The notes beneath the pieces were generated by a model that saw only the letters and a program-made list of their open reading frames with translations, searched no databases and was not told the origin of the DNA. Shown piece after piece: positions 8,507-18,328 of a stretch of 63,200 nt of DNA. Origin of the DNA: Candidatus Mediterraneibacter intestinigallinarum (GTDB taxonomy: Bacteria; Bacillota; Clostridia; Lachnospirales; Lachnospiraceae); contig DWXI01000173.1 in NCBI GenBank assembly GCA_019119265.1, forward strand, positions 1 to 63,200, in the 5' to 3' direction. Within the stretch, counting starts at the first letter, position 1; every line of letters starts with the position of its first letter. The position numbers and the translations under genes are program-made.

Positions 8507-8543
8507 TGTAACTATTGACATTACAACAAAAGAGTGTTATCTT
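8507..8543 (+). promoter_or_regulatory. SigA promoter overlapped by a TGTAA-N9-TTACA Rrf2-type operator
   Basis: TGTAACTATTGACATTACA (8507-8525) contains -35 TTGACA (8515-8520). TATCTT -10 lies at 17-bp spacing (8538-8543). Confidence 0.7.
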
Positions 8544-8611
8544 GAGAGCGGTTGGGATCAACGAAGATATATGCAGGAGCATGGAAGATATCAGGAAAGA
8601 GGCGGAAAAAG

Positions 8612-9493
8612 ATGCGGTTCGGTAAACACGTGGATGAAAAGGATAAAGAAAAAAAGAACAGCGCGGGCGGCAGGCAGGAAGAGAGGCTTGACTATCTGCT
8701 CCGTGAATTTAAGGAAGATTCCGTGCAGTACAGAGACCTGGAAACAGGAGCGGACTATCAGGAGAAGCGGAGACTCCTGCGCTCCCTTATGAATATCCGT
8801 ATGCCGGGAAAAATGAATGAAGAAGTCCTGCGAGTGCAGGATGATTTCCTGACCGAAGAGGCGAAAGAAAAAGGAATCGTGGAACTTGACGATATCCTGA
8901 CGGTGGGAGAGCAGTACGGCAGCAGCCATCCCTATGCGGATAAAATGTCTGTCTGGCAGGGAGATATTACCAGACTCCATGTCGGAGCTATCGTCAACGC
9001 AGCGAACTCGCAGATGCTCGGATGTTTCGTGCCATGTCACGGATGCATCGACAATGCCATCCACAGCGCGGCAGGGATTGAACTGCGTGAGGCGTGCAGC
9101 CATTATATGAACCGGAAGCGGATGCAGTACGGCCGCCGCTATGAGGAACCAACAGGACAGGCTGTTCTGACAGAAGGATACAATCTGCCCGCTGAGTACG
9201 TGATCCATACAGTGGGCCCCATTGTGGGAGGTTATCTGAATCAGGGCCTGAGGGACGATCTGAGGAACTGTTATCAGAATGTACTGAAGTGCTGCGTGGA
9301 GCATAAGATACGTTCTGTAGCGTTTTGCTGCATCAGCACCGGGGAATTTTGTTTCCCGAATGACGAGGCGGCGAAGATTGCGGTGGAGACTGTGACAGAG
9401 TTTCTAAACGAGCATACTGAGGAATTTGACCGGGTGGTTTTCAATGTTTTCAAGGATGTGGATCGGGAACTATATGAAGAAGAGCTGAGTTGA
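8612..9493 (+). CDS. Zinc-type macrodomain protein-ADP-ribose hydrolase (SirTM-associated)
   Basis: WQGDIT, IVNAAN, Zn loop GCFVPCHGCIDNAIH, HTVGP, FCCISTGEF. N-terminal helical extension RLLRSLMNIR. Confidence 0.92.
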   Translation: MRFGKHVDEKDKEKKNSAGGRQEERLDYLLREFKEDSVQYRDLETGADYQEKRRLLRSLMNIRMPGKMNEEVLRVQDDFLTEEAKEKGIVELDDILTVGEQYGSSHPYADKMSVWQGDITRLHVGAIVNAANSQMLGCFVPCHGCIDNAIHSAAGIELREACSHYMNRKRMQYGRRYEEPTGQAVLTEGYNLPAEYVIHTVGPIVGGYLNQGLRDDLRNCYQNVLKCCVEHKIRSVAFCCISTGEFCFPNDEAAKIAVETVTEFLNEHTEEFDRVVFNVFKDVDRELYEEELS

Positions 9494-9525
9494 TTTTCAT
9501 ACAGGCATAAATTTTTCTGTGCATA

Positions 9526-9573
9526 TTGACATGGTAGTAATATATATACATAATATATATAGAATATTACTAC
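9526..9573 (+). promoter_or_regulatory. TA operon promoter with palindromic operator
   Basis: TTGACA 9526-9531, CATAAT 9549-9554. Inverted repeat GTAGTAATAT (9534) / ATATTACTAC (9564). Confidence 0.7.
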
Positions 9574-9597
9574 TGAATAGATGCGGGAGGTTGAGTT

Positions 9598-9864
9598 ATG
9601 AATATACGTCCATCAGCAGCAATCCGTCAGAATTACAACGAGATTGCCGAAATGTGCAGAAAGACTGCAGAGCCGGTTTTCCTGACCAAGAACGGAGAGG
9701 GAGATTTAGTCGTTATGGATATTGAGACTTATAACCGCAGGGAGAAAATGCTGAAGTTACGCGAGGAACTGCTTGCAGTTGAGGAGGACAGAATTGCGGG
9801 AAGAAAAGGCTGTACTCTTGACGAACTGGACGCTTATCTTGATGAAGTGATCTCAGAGGTATAA
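9598..9864 (+). CDS. Type II antitoxin, Phd/YefM family
   Basis: EPVFLTKNGEGDLVVMDIETY signature and acidic C-terminus. Confidence 0.9.
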   Translation: MNIRPSAAIRQNYNEIAEMCRKTAEPVFLTKNGEGDLVVMDIETYNRREKMLKLREELLAVEEDRIAGRKGCTLDELDAYLDEVISEV

Positions 9865-9867
9865 CGT

Positions 9868-10185
9868 ATGGTATCAAACAGCAAGTATAAAGTCATTGTT
9901 TCCGATCGGGCAAAAAGGATGTTGGGAACGCATATCCGCTTTATGGCGCAGGTTGACAAGAAGGCAGCGGAGGCAAAGAAAGAGGAGGTTATGGCGGCGC
10001 TGCGCTCTTTAAGCCAGATGCCGCAGCGTTTTCCGTTCTTTGAGGAACCATATATCACGCCGAACAAATACCATAAAATGTTTATTGAAAAGTGGTATCT
10101 TGTTCTTTATCAAATTCAGGATAATACCGTATATGTAGAGTATATCCTTGACTGCCGCAAGGATTATAACTGGCTTATCAAATAA
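9868..10185 (+). CDS. Type II toxin, RelE/ParE family
   Basis: 105 aa basic protein (YKVIVSDRA, L..MP.RFP, YLVLYQI..VYV..I.D.R) directly after the antitoxin. Confidence 0.88.
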   Translation: MVSNSKYKVIVSDRAKRMLGTHIRFMAQVDKKAAEAKKEEVMAALRSLSQMPQRFPFFEEPYITPNKYHKMFIEKWYLVLYQIQDNTVYVEYILDCRKDYNWLIK

Positions 10186-10224
10186 TGGTAGGAAAAATAA
10201 ATCTCAAAAGGAGATGAGAACATT

Positions 10225-10653
10225 ATGCAGATTTCAAGCAGATTTACAATCGCTCTCCATATGCTGACCTGTATGGAGACATTTAAAGAAGATTATAAGA
10301 TAACAAGCGACTTTCTGGCTTCCAGTATTAATGTAAATCCTGTTATTATCAGACGGATTCTGTCACAGTTAAAAGAGGCAGGCATTATCGAGGTGAAGAG
10401 AGGAACAGGCGGAGCAAAGATCACAAAACCGCTTCAGGATATTACGTTTCTGGACGTATATTACGCGGTAGAATGTATAGAAGAAAATACGTTGTTCCAT
10501 TTTCACGAGAATCCGAATCCGAATTGTCCGGTCGGAAAGAATATACACAATATTCTTGATGACAAGCTGTACCGGGTCCAGGCGGCGATGGAGCGGGAGC
10601 TGAAAGCGATCACACTTGCAGATGTGATGAATGATCTTGGAAAATATATTTGA
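10225..10653 (+). CDS. Rrf2-family repressor, SifR/YwnA-like
   Basis: MQISSRFTIA.H, TSDFLASS..VNPVIIR, RGTGG, HENPNPNCPVG. Lacks the IscR three-Cys Fe-S motif. Confidence 0.92.
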   Translation: MQISSRFTIALHMLTCMETFKEDYKITSDFLASSINVNPVIIRRILSQLKEAGIIEVKRGTGGAKITKPLQDITFLDVYYAVECIEENTLFHFHENPNPNCPVGKNIHNILDDKLYRVQAAMERELKAITLADVMNDLGKYI

Positions 10654-10703
10654 GACAATGAATGAAGATGCGCAGAGATAATCCCGCATCTTCATTTGTT
10701 GTC
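10654..10703. terminator. Long hairpin between convergent rrf2 and hxlR
   Basis: GACAATGAATGAAGATGCG / CGCATCTTCATTTGTTGTC. Confidence 0.6.
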
Positions 10704-11036
10704 TGGATCTGTACACACCCGGTTTTTATATTCTGTTCCCCATTTTTCCATTGCATCCAGTATAGGTTTCATGGACTCTCCCAGAGGCGTCAGGGAATAT
10801 TCCACTCTGGGCGGTACTTCCGGATAGACAGTGCGTGCGACGATCCCGTCAGACTCCAGTGCACGCAGGCTGTCTGCCAGAACTTTCTGGCTGATGCCTT
10901 CCAGATCTTTGCGCAGTTCGTTGAAGCGCCACGGACGCACAAGAAGATTACGCAGGATCAGCAGTTTCCATTTGCTTCCGATCAGCTGTACGGTCGTTGC
11001 TACCGGACATGCCGGCATCTCTTCTTTTGTGAGCAT
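10692..11036 (-). CDS. HxlR/DUF24-family redox-sensing regulator
   Basis: N-terminal CPV, IGSKWK..IL, RFNEL, YPEVPPRVEYSLT. Confidence 0.93.
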   Translation of the reverse strand: MLTKEEMPACPVATTVQLIGSKWKLLILRNLLVRPWRFNELRKDLEGISQKVLADSLRALESDGIVARTVYPEVPPRVEYSLTPLGESMKPILDAMEKWGTEYKNRVCTDPDNK

Positions 11037-11104
11037 CTGATCACCTCCGTTTTCATACAGTCAATTCCCTGAGCTATTATAACACATAATCATATTGAAG
11101 GTAT

Positions 11105-11172
11105 GGTTACCTTTTTGTAACCAGGTAATAAAAAAGTGCGTACTTCTTTTATGTAACGATGGGAGTTACAAT
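11105..11172. promoter_or_regulatory. Divergent control region with HxlR-type and Rrf2-type operators
   Basis: Palindromes GGTTAC-N6-GTAACC (11105-11122) and AAGTGCGTACTT (11134-11145). TGTAA-CGATGGGAG-TTACA (11152-11170) overlaps TACAAT. Confidence 0.65.
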
Positions 11173-11225
11173 AAAACTGCAAACGAAAAAGGCGTTTGAC
11201 AATAAGAAAAACGGAGGTAAACACT

Positions 11226-11366
11226 ATGTCACTTTCAAATCTTTTCGGATGGAACAAAAAGGCGGAGACTCAGCCTGCAGCGGCATGCGGAACAGCCTGC
11301 GGAGCCGGAGACAAGCCGGAGGAGAAGCCTGCAGCATGCGGAACAGCCTGCAGAGCCGGTTTATGA
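11226..11366 (+). CDS. acgA: ACGX-repeat RiPP precursor peptide, 46 aa: MSLSNLFGWNKKAETQPAAACGTACGAGDKPEEKPAACGTACRAGL
   Basis: Translated by hand. GGAGGT RBS upstream, ACG[T/A] motifs, immediately upstream of the rSAM/SPASM gene. Confidence 0.9.
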   Translation: MSLSNLFGWNKKAETQPAAACGTACGAGDKPEEKPAACGTACRAGL

Positions 11367-11394
11367 TAGATGAAAGAAAGGCGAGGGTGATATC

Positions 11395-12429
11395 ATGAAA
11401 CAGTATTTTTCTTTTCAGTGGCACATTACGGATGAGTGTGACCAGCGGTGCAAGCACTGCTATATCTTTTCAGAGGACAACTGCAAAAAGCTGGATTCCA
11501 TGACGTGGGAACAGATGCAGAAAACATTTGACAATTGTCTTGATTTTTGCAGGACATATGACAGACTGCCGTATTTTTATATTACGGGAGGAGATCCGAT
11601 CCTCCATCCGGACTTCTGGAGGCTTCTGGAACTTCTGAAAAGTCATGATATCCCGTTTACCATTCTGGGCAATCCATTCCATCTAAACGATGAAGTTTGT
11701 CAGAAGCTGAAAGTGTATGGCTGCGAGAAGTACCAGCTTTCTCTGGACGGCATGAGAAAGACTCACGACTGGTTCCGGAAGCCCGGCAGTTTCGATATCA
11801 CTCTAGAGAAGATCAAGTGTATCAGAAAGGCGGGTATCCGCGCCGTGATCATGACGACAGTATCCGGCACAAACATCGACGAGGTCCCGGATATCATAGA
11901 TGCTGTCGTAGAACATAAGGCGGACGTGTTTGCATTTGCAAGATACTGCCCGACCAGTGAGGAGAAGGACGTGGGTATCGAGCCGATGCGCTACCGGCAG
12001 CTGTTCGCGGACTGTGACCGGAAGTTTAAGGAATATGAGGCGGCAGGATGTGAGACATATTTTAACAAAAAAGATCATCTCTGGACGCTGTATGAATACG
12101 AAACAGGAGAATTTAGGATTCCGCAGAACGCGGAAGAAGGCATGATCTACGGAGGGTGTAACTGCGGGAACTGTCATCTCACCATTCTCCCCACAGGAGA
12201 TATCTATGCCTGTCGGAGAGTACAGAACAGCAAAGCCGGAAATGTATTTACTGACCGGATTGCGGACGTATGGCTCGGACGGATGGAGCAGTACCGCGAT
12301 TATAAGAAGTTTGAGAAATGTGCGAAATGCGAGCTGCTCGCATGGTGCAGGGGATGCCCTGCCGTGGCAAGCGGAAAAGACGGCGATTTTTATGCGGCGG
12401 ATCCACAGTGTTGGAAGGAGGTTGGATAA
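11395..12429 (+). CDS. acgM: Radical SAM/SPASM peptide maturase, ACGX system
   Basis: CDQRCKHC, TGGDP. SPASM cysteines GGCNCGNC...ACRR and CAKCELLAWCRGCPA...C. Confidence 0.9.
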   Translation: MKQYFSFQWHITDECDQRCKHCYIFSEDNCKKLDSMTWEQMQKTFDNCLDFCRTYDRLPYFYITGGDPILHPDFWRLLELLKSHDIPFTILGNPFHLNDEVCQKLKVYGCEKYQLSLDGMRKTHDWFRKPGSFDITLEKIKCIRKAGIRAVIMTTVSGTNIDEVPDIIDAVVEHKADVFAFARYCPTSEEKDVGIEPMRYRQLFADCDRKFKEYEAAGCETYFNKKDHLWTLYEYETGEFRIPQNAEEGMIYGGCNCGNCHLTILPTGDIYACRRVQNSKAGNVFTDRIADVWLGRMEQYRDYKKFEKCAKCELLAWCRGCPAVASGKDGDFYAADPQCWKEVG

Positions 12430-12439
12430 GATGGGAGGC

Positions 12440-12820
12440 GTGAATCAGACAGCAAGATCAGACCATGCGGCAGCAACGGGAGGAAGAGAACCCGTGACAG
12501 TCATGGATGCAATCATGCACCGCCGTGCAATCCGGCGATACGATCCAAGGCAGATCGAGGAGCCGGAGCTGCAGCAGATCCTTGAGGCAGGCATGTACGC
12601 TCCCAGCGCAGGCGGGCGTCAGGGTGTGATCTTTGCAGTATGTCAGGACAGAGAAGTCAATGAAAGGCTTGGGAAAATCAAGCGTGCAAACTCGAATTGG
12701 AGGATGGCGTCAGGAAATAACTATAATGCAGTCATGCAGCTTCTGCTCGGATATCCGAGGGAGACGGACAGACATCCTTCGCCGAAACCGCGCAAAGAGG
12801 GGCGTATCATACGGGTGTAA
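12440..12820 (+). pseudogene. Nitroreductase-family protein with probable internal deletion
   Basis: RRAIRRY and AGMYAPSAGGRQ join directly to C-terminal LLLGYP..PKPRK. The central A.ENMMLAA/G.GSC segment is absent. Start codon uncertain. Confidence 0.7.
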
Positions 12821-12878
12821 GAAAATGTAATATTGAGTGCAAAGATCAAGAAATCATTCAGATAAAGGAGAGAAACAG

Positions 12879-13499
12879 ATGGATGCAAAGACCTGTTTAC
12901 AGAAATTACAGTATGTCGGCGTGCTTGCTTTTGCCACTGTGGATGCAGACGGAGCGCCTCAGGTGCGCAATATCAGCGCCATTCATTACGAGCCGGACGC
13001 CATTTATTTCTTTACGGCAAGAGGGAAGGACTTCTGCCGTGAGCTGTTGGCCGACGGACGGGTGCAGATACTTGGATACACAAGGTATAAAGAGATGATC
13101 CGCCTGTCCGCAAAGGCGGAGCCGGTTCCGGATGAGGCACAGCAGAAATGGATCAGAACTATATTTGAGGAACAGCCTTATCTCTCAAATGTATATCCGG
13201 GAGATACAAGAGAGATTGGCATTGTATTTGTGATCAGGGATGCACGGATCGAATATTTTAATCTGGGTGTGCGCCCGATCTTCAGAGAGAGCTATTCAGT
13301 GGGAAGCGGACATGTTACAATGCAAGGGTATCAGATTACGGATGCGTGCATCGGCTGTGGAACCTGCGCAGAGCACTGCCCACAGGCATGTATCGAGCCG
13401 GGAGAACCGTTCAGGATTCATCAGGAGCACTGCCTTCACTGCGGGAACTGCTTTGAACACTGTCCGGTGTCCGCCATAAAGAAAAGAGGAGAAGAATAA
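12879..13499 (+). CDS. Pyridoxamine 5'-phosphate oxidase-like flavin domain fused to a 2x[4Fe-4S] ferredoxin
   Basis: FATVD..G.PQVR, YFFTARGK. CIGCGTCAEHCP and CLHCGNCFEHCP. Confidence 0.88.
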   Translation: MDAKTCLQKLQYVGVLAFATVDADGAPQVRNISAIHYEPDAIYFFTARGKDFCRELLADGRVQILGYTRYKEMIRLSAKAEPVPDEAQQKWIRTIFEEQPYLSNVYPGDTREIGIVFVIRDARIEYFNLGVRPIFRESYSVGSGHVTMQGYQITDACIGCGTCAEHCPQACIEPGEPFRIHQEHCLHCGNCFEHCPVSAIKKRGEE

Positions 13500-14425
13500 T
13501 GTTGGCACAGAGATTGTTCCGGAGAAACGAGGAGACTTACAACGAGAAGATACAGAGACTGGGGAATGTCCTTGAGGAGGCGGACGTTGTGATCATCGGC
13601 GCGGGAGCAGGACTTTCCACGTCGGCAGGTTTTGTATATGACGGGGAACGCTTCCAGAAATATTTCGGTGATTTTAAAGAAAAATACGGATTCCGGGATA
13701 TGTACTCCGGCGGATTTTATCCATACGATACACTGGAAGAACACTGGGCGTACTGGAGCCGCTATATCTGGATCAACCGTTATGCGGATGCCCCGAAACC
13801 GGTATATGACGAATTGTTTGCACTTGTAAAGGATAAAGATTATTTCGTCCTGACGACCAATGTAGACCACTGTTTCCAGAAAGCGGGATTTGATAAGGAA
13901 AGGCTGTTCTACACGCAGGGAGATTACGGGCTGTTCCAGTGCAGTGTACCTTGCCATAAGGAAACTTATGACAATGCAGAGATTATCCGTAAAATGATTG
14001 AGGCACAAGGCTATGTGATCGCTGAAAACGGTGAGATAAATTTACCGGAAGGGATTGTGCCTAAAATGGAGGTTCCCTCTGAATTGGTTCCCCACTGTCC
14101 GAAGTGCGGAAAACCTATGAGTATGAATCTCCGGGCTGATGATACTTTTGTGGAGGATGGAGGCTGGCACAAGGCAGCACAGCGATATTCTGATTTTCTC
14201 CGCAGACATCAAAACATGAGAGTGCTGTTTTTAGAAGCAGCCGTTGGCTTCAATACGCCAACGATAGTCAAGTATAGCTTCTGGCGGATGGTATACGAGT
14301 GGGAAGATGCGTTGTATGCCTGTTTGAATTACGGAGAGGCTTTTGCCCCTGATGAAATAAAAAAGAAGTCAATTTGTATCAATGGAGATATAGGAGCGAT
14401 TCTTAATCAACTCCAACCCACATAA
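13499..14425 (+). CDS. Class M sirtuin (SirTM-like NAD-dependent ADP-ribosyltransferase)
   Basis: GAGAGLS, YFVLTTNVD, FYTQGDY (Gln at the usual catalytic His position), Zn ligands QCSVPC/CPKC, NTPTIVKYSFW. Translationally coupled (TAATG). Confidence 0.9.
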   Translation: MLAQRLFRRNEETYNEKIQRLGNVLEEADVVIIGAGAGLSTSAGFVYDGERFQKYFGDFKEKYGFRDMYSGGFYPYDTLEEHWAYWSRYIWINRYADAPKPVYDELFALVKDKDYFVLTTNVDHCFQKAGFDKERLFYTQGDYGLFQCSVPCHKETYDNAEIIRKMIEAQGYVIAENGEINLPEGIVPKMEVPSELVPHCPKCGKPMSMNLRADDTFVEDGGWHKAAQRYSDFLRRHQNMRVLFLEAAVGFNTPTIVKYSFWRMVYEWEDALYACLNYGEAFAPDEIKKKSICINGDIGAILNQLQPT

Positions 14426-14729: not shown

Positions 14730-16004
14730 ATGACATATATCAAACGAGCTGTGGAAGAGACGATTGCACGGGTGTCCAAAATGTTTCCGGTGCTGCTGGT
14801 AACTGGTCCAAGGCAGGTAGGGAAAACGACCTTATTGCAAAGAATGGCAGAGGCACAGCAAAGCGAAGGCATAGAGCGCAAATATGTTACTCTGGATGAT
14901 CCTGACGTCAGATACCTGGCAAAACACGATCCTGCCCTGTTTTTACAGAGGTATTCCCCACCGGTACTGATTGATGAAATCCAGTATGCAACAGAGCTGC
15001 TGCCCTATATCAAAATGAGCGTTGACCGTTCTAAGAAAAAAGGTGATTTCTGGATCACAGGCTCGCAGGTGTTCCGTCTTATGAAAAATGTCAGCGAAAG
15101 TTTGGCCGGACGGGTCGGAATCGTGAACCTGCTGGGATTATCCGATGCGGAGATCTACCAGGAACCGAGCGAGCCTTTTCAAACGGAAGCCGGATATTTG
15201 ATGGAGCGTTTGTCCGTAAAAAGAAAAAGAGATTTGAATGAGATCTACCGCAGGATATTCAAAGGTTCCATGCCGGAACTCTATGCAGACGAAAATGTGG
15301 ATTGGGAGACTTACTACCGCTCCTATGTTGATACCTATCTGCAAAGGGATATTCGGGATCTGGCACAGGTTGCGGATGAAATGCAGTTTTACAATTTTAT
15401 GACGATTGTTGCTGCACAGACCTCAAAACCTGTTGTCTATGAGGAACTGGCGAGTGCCGCAGGCGTTTCAGCTCCAACGGCAAAGAAATGGCTCTCTATT
15501 TTGGTGTCGTCTCATATCATTGCGCTTGTACAGCCTTATCATAACAATGCACTCAAACGGGTTGTAAAGATGCCATTGATCCATTTCCTGGACACCGGTT
15601 TGGCAGCGTACCTCTTAAAATGGGGCAATCCCGAAGCACTGGAAAGAGGCGCCATGTCTGGGGCGTTTTTTGAGAGCTATGTTTTTTCAGAGATTTATAA
15701 GAGTTATCTGAACGCAGGAAAAGAGCCGCCCATTTTCTATTACCGGGATAAAGACCAGAAAGAAATAGACCTGTTGCTTTATCAGAATGGTGTGCTTTCT
15801 CCGATAGAGATCAAAAAATCGGCGTCACCGGGCAAGACCGCCATTAAAAACTTCAAGGTATTGGAACCCGTTACCAGGGAATCAGTTTTCGGAGGTTCAG
15901 AGCCTTTGAAGGTCGAGATTGGAACCGGGAGCGTGGTCTGTATGGCAAACGATCTGTTGCCTGTGGACGACAAGAACTGGTACGTACCAGTTTGGCTCAT
16001 TTAA
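14730..16004 (+). CDS. AAA+ ATPase (AAA_14 + DUF4143)
   Basis: Walker A GPRQVGKT, Walker B LIDEIQ, TGSQ, DTGL, C-terminal EIDL...IEIK. Confidence 0.9.
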   Translation: MTYIKRAVEETIARVSKMFPVLLVTGPRQVGKTTLLQRMAEAQQSEGIERKYVTLDDPDVRYLAKHDPALFLQRYSPPVLIDEIQYATELLPYIKMSVDRSKKKGDFWITGSQVFRLMKNVSESLAGRVGIVNLLGLSDAEIYQEPSEPFQTEAGYLMERLSVKRKRDLNEIYRRIFKGSMPELYADENVDWETYYRSYVDTYLQRDIRDLAQVADEMQFYNFMTIVAAQTSKPVVYEELASAAGVSAPTAKKWLSILVSSHIIALVQPYHNNALKRVVKMPLIHFLDTGLAAYLLKWGNPEALERGAMSGAFFESYVFSEIYKSYLNAGKEPPIFYYRDKDQKEIDLLLYQNGVLSPIEIKKSASPGKTAIKNFKVLEPVTRESVFGGSEPLKVEIGTGSVVCMANDLLPVDDKNWYVPVWLI

Positions 16005-16027
16005 TCAGTATTTTGCAGAATGAACGA

Positions 16028-16123
16028 GGACTGAACACCCCAGGTATCATCAAGTATCCGTTCTGGCAGGTGACATACCGGAATCCGGAGGCAACATATG
16101 CGTGCATCAATTACGGGGATGCC
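16028..16123 (+). pseudogene. C-terminal fragment of a second class M sirtuin
   Basis: GLNTPGIIKYPFWQVTYRNPEATYACINYGDA aligns with GFNTPTIVKYSFWRMVYEWEDALYACLNYGEA of 13499..14425. Confidence 0.8.
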
Positions 16124-16225
16124 ATTATGATTTTCTGCTTGACCCGGAGTGTCTTGAAAAATAAAGAAGTAAGCCAAAAGGCCGAAAAAATAATTGCCAG
16201 ATTACCGAAAAAGGAGCGTAAAAAT

Positions 16226-17101
16226 ATGCATGACATCTGGAATCCGTGGCACGGCTGCAGGAAGTGCTCGGAGGGCTGTGAAAACTGTTATATGTATTTT
16301 CTTGACCGGATGCGGGAGCAGGACGGAAGCCGGATCTACCGGACGAAGAACGGCTTCCGCTATCCGCTGTCTAAGGATCGGCAGGGGAAGTACAAAGTAA
16401 AGAGCGGAGAGATGATCCGGGTCTGCATGACTTCGGATTTTTTCCTTGAAGAGGCGGATGAATGGCGGGATGATGCGTGGTCTGTCATGCGGGAGAGGAA
16501 GGATGTCAAGTTCTTCCTATTGACGAAGCGGCCTGAGCGCGTCTCTTCCTGTCTGCCCTATGACTGGGGAGATGGATGGGAGAATGTCTTTTTTAATGTG
16601 ACCTGCGAGAACCAGAGGCGGGCGGACGAGAGAATCCCGATCCTGTTTGAGCTGCCTTTTAAGCACAAGGGAATTATGACCGCCCCTTTGATCGGTCCGG
16701 TAGATATTGAAAAATATCTGGCGGCAGGGCAGATCGAACAGGTGATATGCGGCGGGGAAAACTATGATGGTTCCCGTCTCTGCCGCTATGAGTGGGTGAA
16801 GCTTTTAAGTGACCAGTGCAGAAAATATGGCGTTACTTTTAACTTTATCGAGACAGGCACCTGTTTCGCGGTCGGGGAAAAGGTATACCGTATTCCGGAT
16901 AAGCGGACACAGTCGCAGCAGGCATTCCGGTCCGGGCTGAATTATAAAGGGAAAGAGATCCGTTTCCACCTGACGGATGAATGGGGATATGACATTCCGG
17001 AGGGAGAACTCTATGTTCCCCATTATCATTCGGTCACATGTGTGGAATGTTCCAACCGTCTGACGTGCAACGGATGCTCAGACTGTGGAAAGTGTTCCTA
17101 G
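16226..17101 (+). CDS. DUF5131 (phage Gp37/Gp68-like) protein with Cys-rich C-terminus
   Basis: WNPWHGCRKCSEGCENCY, SDFF, LLTKRPER, VICGGE. AAGGAG RBS before the ATG at 16226. Confidence 0.85.
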   Translation: MHDIWNPWHGCRKCSEGCENCYMYFLDRMREQDGSRIYRTKNGFRYPLSKDRQGKYKVKSGEMIRVCMTSDFFLEEADEWRDDAWSVMRERKDVKFFLLTKRPERVSSCLPYDWGDGWENVFFNVTCENQRRADERIPILFELPFKHKGIMTAPLIGPVDIEKYLAAGQIEQVICGGENYDGSRLCRYEWVKLLSDQCRKYGVTFNFIETGTCFAVGEKVYRIPDKRTQSQQAFRSGLNYKGKEIRFHLTDEWGYDIPEGELYVPHYHSVTCVECSNRLTCNGCSDCGKCS

Positions 17102-17195
17102 TGCATTAGCCGCAGTAAGCACGTTAGTGCGCCTTTGCAAGCAGTACGGAGCAAGCTGCAGCGATTACAGTTATATAAGTTATTACGAGGGAAGG

Positions 17196-18005
17196 ATGGC
17201 TATGCAGTCAAGATCTAAAATGTTAAAAAAAGCTTTCACCACGGCATTCCCCTATACGATACCGATATTTGCCGGATTCTGGTTTCTGGGTATTACATAT
17301 GGGATATACATGAATGTGTCAGGATTCAGTTTCTGGTATCCGATGCTCATGAGTGTGACGATATTTGCCGGCTCGATCGAATTTGTGACCGTGAATATGC
17401 TCCTTGGGGCGTTTAATCCGCTGCAGGCGTTTGTCATGACGCTGATGATCAATGCGAGACACCTGTTCTACGGGATTTCCATGCTGGACAAGTTCCGGGG
17501 AGTGGGCAGGAAGAAGTTTTATCTTATATTCGGCATGTGTGATGAGACGTTTTCTATCAATTATACGGCGGATATTCCGGAAGATGTGGACCGCGGATGG
17601 TTCATGTTCTTTGTGACTCTGCTGAATCATTTTTACTGGTTCTCAGGGGCAACGCTTGGCGGTATCTTCGGATCGCTGATCAACTTTAATACAGAAGGTC
17701 TTGAGTTTGTCATGACGGCGATGTTCGTTGTGATCTTTCTGGAGCAGTGGCTTAAGGAAAAAGACCACACGAGTTCTCTCATTGGACTGGGGATTTCGAT
17801 CCTCTGCCTGATAGCATTCGGAGCGGACAACTTTATTATCCCGGCAATGCTGGCAATCCTCGGAGTGCTGACGCTTATGCGGCACCCGCTTGAGAATACC
17901 GGGACCGGAGAGAACGAGGTGCAGGAGGATGCGAGCGAAAGTAAAAAGACAGAAAGAGCCTCAATTGGGACGGGCAATATAGAGAAGGGAGGAGAAGTAC
18001 AATGA
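17196..18005 (+). CDS. azlC: AzlC-family branched-chain amino acid exporter
   Basis: [33 protein letters not shown]. Confidence 0.9.
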
Positions 18006-18328
18006 CGCTGACACAACAGATCATCACAGTTGCAATGGTTGTCCTGGGAACGGCGGTCACCCGTTTCCTCCCATTCCTTATCTTCCCGGCAGGAAAGCCG
18101 ACGCCGAAATATGTGCAGTATCTGGGAAAGGTGCTTCCGGCGGCAGTATTCGGACTGCTCGTCGTTTACAGCCTGAAAGACGTGAGTATCCTTACCGGCA
18201 GCCATGGAATACCGGAACTGATCTCGATTGTTCTGGTTATCGTGCTCCATGTGTGGAAACGGCAGATGCTTCTGTCTATTGCCGGAGGAACCGTGTGCTA
18301 CATGCTGTTAGTACAGCTCGTTTTCTGA
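18002..18328 (+). CDS. azlD: AzlD-family exporter subunit
   Basis: [25 protein letters not shown]. Overlaps the azlC stop. Confidence 0.9.

Follow-up and report, generated by a model that had tools for sequence, protein, structure and literature searches.

An ACGX radical SAM peptide operon beside a class M sirtuin in Candidatus Mediterraneibacter intestinigallinarum: comparison with described SirTM operons

Described systems and gene content of the locus

The locus considered here lies in a stretch of 63,200 nucleotides (the window; contig DWXI01000173.1) of Candidatus Mediterraneibacter intestinigallinarum and unites two known gene sets: an ACGX precursor peptide with its radical S-adenosylmethionine (rSAM) maturase, and a class M sirtuin (SirTM, writer) with a Zn-dependent macrodomain (eraser). 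The comparison system is the extended SirTM operon of Staphylococcus and Streptococcus (GcvH-L, LplA2, SirTM, Zn-Macro, OYE, LLM); in the portions of PMC4518038 and PMC12440151 drawn on here, ADP-ribose on lipoyl-GcvH-L shields lipoate from oxidation. Lone pairs of SirTM and Zn-Macro, the extended operon and fusions are listed in PMC11490716, the available part of which describes targets beyond that operon as unknown. The ACGX system is defined by curated families (TIGR04340 rSAM_ACGX, TIGR04341 target_ACGX; PF27855); no ACGX product, function or joint occurrence with SirTM was found in the literature searched, which excluded most subscription papers and supplements.

The locus resembles the ACGX system in its adjacent peptide and rSAM genes, both above the curated cut-offs; the family names do not include the HxlR regulator, the oxidoreductases or the SirTM link, and the window peptide is a truncated allele. 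It shares with the extended operon SirTM, Zn-macro, flavin oxidoreductases, a small protein that bears sulfur together with its modifier, and the redox-stress theme; peptide, rSAM, nitroreductase, PNPOx-ferredoxin and HxlR stand in place of GcvH-L/LplA, and the macrodomain gene is often missing or displaced in ACGX loci. Lone pairs, common in the family (84/200 genomes), likewise hold writer and eraser without GcvH-L; the window pair differs from them in being embedded in a longer regulated operon, with macro and sirTM 4 kb apart and an opposite-strand gene between, although many lone pairs are also accompanied by HxlR/Rrf2 and flavoproteins. Each part thus belongs to a known family, and the combination is a variant of the extended SirTM operon: a real gene system, and an unproven writer–substrate pair.

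On balance, a conserved gut-anaerobe operon for thiol/oxidant stress appears the probable reading, by a modest measure of confidence: the rSAM enzyme would oxidise cysteines of the peptide, and SirTM would be co-regulated, its main target being other than the peptide. The established base of this reading is gene content, gene order, conservation, a common operator-like motif and fusions. The genes concerned are as follows.

8612–9493 (+): Zn-dependent macrodomain (eraser); NF003163, 305.7 bits, cut-off 272; PDB matches 8RSI/5KIV
10692–11036 (−): regulator of the HxlR/DUF24 family, Cys-Pro at the N-terminal end, divergent from the ACGX operon; PF01638, 115.9 bits
11109–11150 (+): putative conserved operator-like motif in the gap from hxlR to the peptide gene; single high-scoring site genome-wide
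11226–11366 (+): ACGX precursor peptide, 46 aa, truncated allele; TIGR04341, 51.2 bits, cut-off 28
11395–12429 (+): ACGX radical SAM/SPASM maturase, intact; TIGR04340, 621.5 bits, cut-off 400, residues 3–343
12431–12820 (+): nitroreductase with in-frame internal deletion; PF00881, N-part only
12879–13499 (+): PNPOx-like flavin-binding domain fused to a 2×[4Fe-4S] ferredoxin; PF01243 and PF00037, above cut-off
13499–14425 (+): class M sirtuin SirTM (writer), mosaic gene; best PDB match 5A3A, E 1.7e-62; QG motif

The genes named in a preliminary description of this DNA proved real, each scoring above the family cut-off where one exists. The macrodomain carries the Cx4HxC zinc loop, NAAN, Dx3H and the N-terminal helical extension (translation and alignment to 8RSI, its best PDB match). 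SirTM aligns to the S. pyogenes-type structure 5A3A with QG replacing the catalytic HG; catalytic N121, Q140, G141 and the zinc-ribbon residues C148/C152/C200/C203 are invariant (n = 36 sequences). The SAM and SPASM cysteines are invariant in 91 rSAM sequences; no RRE domain was found in the window rSAM. The same description had macrodomain and sirtuin bracket one same-strand run; the genes are present, but a phd/parE pair, rrf2 and the opposite-strand hxlR intervene between macro and peptide, and there are separate promoter-like sites at 8515 and 9526–9554 (the latter that of phd/parE). The TAATG overlap of the PNPOx-ferredoxin and sirtuin genes was confirmed at 13497–13501; its role as a special coupling signal was rejected, the macro gene usually filling this slot (macro-SirTM in 48/95 loci) and direct PNPOx–SirTM contact being recurrent.

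SirTM beside ACGX loci and the question of its target

Neighbours within 10 kb were scored for the best 80 of 239 ACGX rSAM loci: SirTM, 47/80; macro, 36/80; hxlR, 68/80; PNPOx-ferredoxin, 46/80. Of 200 genomes drawn evenly from the family, 24 had the rSAM and 84 SirTM; SirTM was present in 21/24 rSAM genomes vs 63/176 others, and the two genes lay within ~5 kb of each other in 15/24 rSAM genomes. These counts bear out the earlier expectation that ACGX loci are enriched for SirTM/macro neighbours, and the ACGX–SirTM association is beyond chance; p-values for it overstate the link because the loci are kin and partly redundant. A wider phylum sample (5/400) was too sparse for use. The surveyed loci were pooled with metagenome matches (the best 80 of 585; 7/64 parts scanned), loci with at least 4 kb downstream being kept and the duplicate L172 dropped (n = 124). 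SirTM stood within 7 kb in 80/124 of the pooled ACGX rSAM loci: 57/91 at ≥75% rSAM identity, 15/18 at 66–74% and 8/15, in several gene orders, at 50–65%; it was found in 0/7 sister-family loci (<50% rSAM identity).

Regulator and oxidoreductases: In the pooled set hxlR adjoins 103/124 ACGX rSAMs and an oxidoreductase 122/124, the latter steadier than SirTM; counted were nitroreductase, quinone-reductase-type dehydrogenase, PNPOx-ferredoxin, ferredoxin-nitroreductase and flavin reductase. HxlR homologues carry Cys-Pro within the first 30 residues in 81/95 cases, and thiol sensing is predicted for them. The operator-like motif was derived from ACGX promoters, so that its presence within 3 mismatches in 94/125 of them is circular; it also precedes 11/17 hxlR-SirTM operons without intact rSAM (10/16 without the decayed ACGX locus L170; shuffles 0/17). 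By analogy with B. subtilis HypR, which in the consulted part of PMC3351151 acts on the nitroreductase HypO, HxlR would sense thiol-reactive stress via its N-terminal Cys and switch the operon on. The likeness consists in a DUF24/HxlR regulator with N-terminal Cys beside nitroreductase-type genes; HypR differs in its operator sequence and controls no peptide or ADP-ribosylation genes. The PNPOx-ferredoxin, proposed earlier as an electron source for the rSAM enzyme, is a possible donor; the fusion is missing from 29/70 ACGX loci, and PNPOx-like genes stand beside SirTM in ACGX-free operons as well.

SirTM without ACGX: Of the 84 SirTM genomes in the family draw, 63 are without rSAM and 51 are without both rSAM and GcvH (two of the 51 hold rSAM pieces); the peptide therefore cannot be a general GcvH-L replacement. 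In the genus SirTM occurs in 56/73 genomes and the rSAM in 9/73, and four of the five closest SirTMs (80–84%) lie in genomes without ACGX rSAM match. An ACGX-free set was compiled from 60 SirTM places not beside a called rSAM, paralogues of ~40% identity or less being left out; 2 of 60 held ACGX remnants, which left 58 loci, with HxlR or Rrf2 in 27/58 and a PNPOx-like gene in 22/58. ACGX-linked members cluster in the tree of SirTM sequences without forming one clade (14 label changes, at least 6 forced). ACGX-free and GcvH-free SirTMs, label changes in the tree and the common motif together suggest that SirTM needs a target present also where ACGX is missing; the link can be explained by common regulation. 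In the favoured reading SirTM/Zn-macro would reversibly ADP-ribosylate this target, present also in ACGX-free genomes, under the same stress.

Numerous genomes, both in the family and in the genus, carry distant SirTM-like genes (33–40% identity) as tandem arrays of two or three, which form a separate sirtuin group; examples are:
G039:C22:132770-135638
G153:C1:10659-13241
G052:C66:38907-40584
G277:C60:12176-14716

Peptide as substrate: The alternative, rather unlikely in our estimate, is that SirTM/Zn-macrodomain acts directly on the rSAM-modified ACGX peptide as a stand-in for lipoyl-GcvH-L; ADP-ribose on an Asp/Glu of Gly-Asp-Lys (or on sulfur) would protect the modified cysteines against oxidation. 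Its architecture parallels that of the extended operon as given in the parts of PMC4518038 and PMC12440151 used (sulfur carrier, modifier, flavoenzymes, writer, eraser), and the link of SirTM to ACGX is old and absent from the 7 sister-family loci. Conserved acidic residues favour it too: Cys-x3-Asp/Glu (Cys-x3-Asp being the PapB motif) is present in 85/86 related peptides. No match to GcvH (GCV_H) or LplA was found in the whole genome (88.5% complete), which extends to the genome what had been noted for the window and leaves no GcvH found elsewhere in it as the SirTM substrate; the genome's two biotin/lipoyl domains carry a biotin-type EAMK motif. The anti-correlation of ACGX with GcvH that had been anticipated failed to appear: GcvH was found in 32/200 family genomes, 4/24 with rSAM vs 28/176 without, which counts against this alternative. 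Five gene orders speak for a direct partnership, among them SirTM first (L222) and divergent arrangements (L177, L184); among 95 loci macro-SirTM was seen in 48, SirTM without macro in 28, SirTM then macro in 16, SirTM on the opposite strand in 2 and upstream in 1.

Against the peptide as substrate stand the majority of SirTMs in family and genus, which occur without the ACGX system, and the 44/124 ACGX loci that have no SirTM within 7 kb. ACGX adjacency was not tracked significantly by any SirTM or macro residue (7 and 11 independent pairs, low power). Distances of the rSAM correlate with those of SirTM (rho 0.58, 84 loci) no more strongly than with those of hxlR (0.56) or PNPOx (0.58), an indication of joint travel, not of specific co-evolution. 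The parts also decay separately: in L170 the rSAM is broken and SirTM intact, in L261 SirTM is stopped at codon 147 and the peptide intact, and in the window the peptide is truncated and SirTM intact.

Fusion proteins: Longer proteins with ACGX repeats were looked for; of the 12 hits, two (P0161, P0163) join a full class M sirtuin in frame with a complete ACGX precursor. In all, 10 distinct full-length SirTM::ACGX sequences were collected from ENA, JGI and Logan assemblies (two clusters 83–86% apart; overall 83–99.5% identical), each precursor part having 6–8 Cys-Gly units:
P0161, P0163, P0171, P0174, P0175, P0177, P0180, P0182–P0184

Stop-codon loss is the likely origin of these fusions, because the linker resembles the intergenic DNA of L222 (unfused order hxlR / SirTM-ACGX-rSAM) and retains the peptide's own Met. 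A flavin reductase is fused to the precursor, leader included, in L179, L188, P0152, P0153, P0166, P0185 and P0187; at L188:3248-3967 and L179:9417-10166 (−) the fusion lies directly upstream of the rSAM gene. No SirTM was seen near L179 and L188, and a further radical SAM gene follows downstream in both. The fusions suggest that the peptide may serve redox-stress enzymes as a tethered tail; read-through that is merely tolerated explains them equally well, since two different upstream genes have been fused to the peptide, and to this extent the SirTM::ACGX proteins lose force as support for direct partnership. With SirTM beside the peptide in about two thirds of the loci and, in one lineage, fused to it, the peptide is a testable, unproven candidate target. 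P0161, P0163, P0152 and P0166 are ready-made single-polypeptide test substrates.

Several counts weigh against co-regulation with a separate target. The presence of SirTM in 8/15 deep-branching loci and the recovery of SirTM::ACGX fusions from assemblies of three sources fit direct partnership no less well, or better; SirTM without macro was found at 12 of 70 loci and macro without SirTM at 1; and 31/58 ACGX-free SirTM loci show no HxlR or Rrf2.

The joint operon in 24/200 family genomes bears on both SirTM targets and the ACGX product. If the peptide is ADP-ribosylated, it would be a ribosomally synthesised peptide with post-translational modification (RiPP) under reversible writer/eraser control; otherwise the operon would still indicate a stress-protective RiPP of the cytoplasm, and most SirTMs act on another target.

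Predicted chemistry and fate of the peptide

Thiooxazole formation: The next-best families of the window rSAM after ACGX were SbtM (TIGR04082, 174.8 bits, cut-off 350) and PapB (NF047865, 66.5 bits, cut-off 340), and membership is indicated in neither; the SbtM shortfall counts against the oxidation chemistry of the favoured reading. SbtM ranked second after ACGX in 44/47 near-full-length rSAM relatives (selected from 150 listed). It is the nearest characterised rSAM family: in the excerpts drawn on, SbtM strips four hydrogens from Cys to give thiooxazole (PMC11002830), thiooxazole groups bind copper in bufferins (PMC11626156), and thiooxazoles form at Lys-Cys-Gly sites in another RiPP (PMC12538549). 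Among 527 cysteines of 86 precursors, Ala precedes in 517 and Gly follows in 526. The prediction that the rSAM oxidises Ala-Cys-Gly cysteines to thiooxazoles is given about an even chance; each Ala-Cys-Gly unit would be converted with a change of −4 Da, as by SbtM. In addition to its score at half the cut-off, the window rSAM is without the ~195-residue N-terminal part of the SbtM model; the ACGX peptides show no Sec codon (no in-frame TGA at Cys positions in the peptides inspected) and, unlike bufferins, no signal peptide.

Thioether formation: A rival chemistry, which may apply under either view of SirTM and is held somewhat less probable than not, is the formation by a PapB-like rSAM of Cys-to-Asp beta-thioether rings (−2 Da) at Cys-Gly-x-x-Asp, as in ranthipeptides. 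The residue at Cys+4 is Asp in 265 and Cys in 232 of the 527 cases, the terminal Cys-Gly-Ala-Gly-Asp is present in 62/86 precursors, and 77/86 peptides end in Cys-Gly-x-x-Asp/Glu; these PapB-type motifs weigh against thiooxazoles, the part of PMC10739248 consulted describing crosslinking of CX3D by PapB. The peptides share the repeated Cys-x3-Asp with the PapB/freyrasin precursors and differ in their alternating Cys-x3-Cys. The low PapB score relative to SbtM speaks against thioethers, as do the approximately one half of cysteines without acidic partner. The best PDB match of the rSAM is a ranthipeptide-type entry, 5WGG (which we take to be CteB), and is weak (E 3e-12). Eight candidate Cys-rich open reading frames (ORFs) beside sister enzymes, the substrate role of which is assumed, have Asp at Cys+4 in 1/61 and so lack the partner required for the rival; no NCBIfam family scored above cut-off for them.

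Related enzymes: The sister rSAM families (33–48% identity) with Cys/Gly/Ser-rich small ORFs are those of L221, L224, L230, L243, L244, L247, L269 and L292, and some of these small ORFs share a leader motif with deep ACGX precursors. P0012, P0013, P0017, P0020, P0058 and P0071 consist of ACGX-like rSAM domains with 270–470 extra N-terminal residues; P0071 has two rSAM domains, one PapB-like.

Fate of the product: The modified peptide likely remains cytoplasmic because crude tests gave no ABC ATPase motif in the 4.5 kb downstream (80 loci) and no hydrophobic leader. In the favoured reading this cytoplasmic product would be a redox or metal sink that bears sulfur and is maintained in reduced form by the NAD(P)H flavoenzymes. 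A more far-reaching proposal, a second form of extended SirTM operon with an rSAM-made poly-thiooxazole peptide in place of lipoyl-GcvH-L as a cytoplasmic RiPP redox cofactor, recharged by flavoenzymes, reversibly ADP-ribose-capped by SirTM/Zn-macro and wired by the fusions, is regarded as doubtful.

Origin of the mosaic locus and flanking features

The flanking parts of the window locus are the following.

9598–10185 (+): Phd antitoxin/ParE-family toxin pair; PF02604 and PF05016, above cut-off
10225–10653 (+): Rrf2 regulator of the resident module; PF02082
14730–16004 (+): AAA_14/DUF4143 gene behind SirTM; inserted, none at this place in L199/L200
16004–16126 (+): 3' piece left of the resident SirTM gene, adjoining DUF5131; tblastn 46% to SirTM 242–282

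Resident module: The congeners G202 (99% complete) and G203 (90%) have no ACGX rSAM match and carry macro-rrf2-SirTM-DUF5131-azlC at the same chromosomal place. The window macro and rrf2 are 85% and 86% identical to the syntenic congener genes (L199/L200), in which macro and sirTM are one gene apart. The window has the same flanks with three additions: the toxin–antitoxin (TA) pair, the hxlR-ACGX-rSAM-nitroreductase-PNPOx/Fd block and the AAA gene; the TA pair sits inside the resident macro-rrf2 operon, between the two genes, and is missing at this place in L199, L200, L201 and L212. Nucleotide identity of the window SirTM to the congener SirTM is 92–94% over 13599–13898 and 44–74% elsewhere, and the remnant at 16004–16126 matches the congener SirTM 3' end with 90% identity over 88 nt. 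In the macro tree the window macro falls in a 21-row clade with 7/40 ACGX-linked macros, the other 33 being in the other clade; its near neighbour L184, labelled unlinked, lies divergently beside an ACGX cassette. By these comparisons of sequence, the window macro belongs to the resident macro-rrf2-SirTM module and not to the ACGX cassette, its position being particular to this lineage. As congeners carry the module at this site without ACGX, the cassette probably entered the resident locus by recombination in SirTM, and judging from synteny this entry would have made the apparent bracket.

Mere hitch-hiking, by which ACGX and SirTM/macro cassettes gather in the same shuffled islands without shared function, is considered improbable. 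It is consistent with a window bracket made by recombination, with TA and AAA insertions and several decayed parts, and with the loci being related and not independent; the link recurs, however, over families, deep rSAM branches and gene orders, with tight spacing and the common operator-like motif.

Decay of the window copy: The window copy of the operon is a partly decayed mosaic and a poor model because the peptide gene is deleted in part and the nitroreductase is without its middle. By alignment to the near-identical L261, the peptide gene is short by 161 nt near 11349; lost with them are a repeat unit, the conserved Cys-Gly-Ala-Gly-Asp-Lys terminus and the intergenic region, and the peptide, lying 28 nt upstream of the rSAM gene, retains 4 Cys (family median 6) and one Cys-x3-Asp. 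An assembly error was rejected as the cause of the odd peptide end, the same end being found in four runs from other studies; runs X4, X5 and X9 show one extra 51-nt repeat in the peptide gene. About 78 central residues of the nitroreductase are gone, and it aligns to residues 4–78 and 157–195 of a 195-aa full homologue. L261 (3279 onward) has the intact peptide, the stopped SirTM mentioned above and a 164-nt deletion; the same 164-nt deletion occurs in a contig of RNA run X14. Contigs of X14 cover macro, rSAM, nitroreductase-PNPOx and SirTM; they cannot show strand, level or a single transcript and were not used.

Minor observations: The sequencing runs containing window DNA are mostly chicken gut metagenomes, and the nearest named loci are from Lachnospiraceae. 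The SirTM remnant 16004–16126 shares its reading frame with the beginning of the DUF5131 ORF; comparable C-terminal pieces of SirTM lie behind AAA-type or other inserts in L071, L113, L116, L139 and L169. DUF5131 and azlC/azlD-like genes (16190–18328) mark an insertion hotspot, with other cassettes ahead of them in the congener loci L199, L202 and L203. A Phd/ParE-like pair also precedes hxlR in L021.

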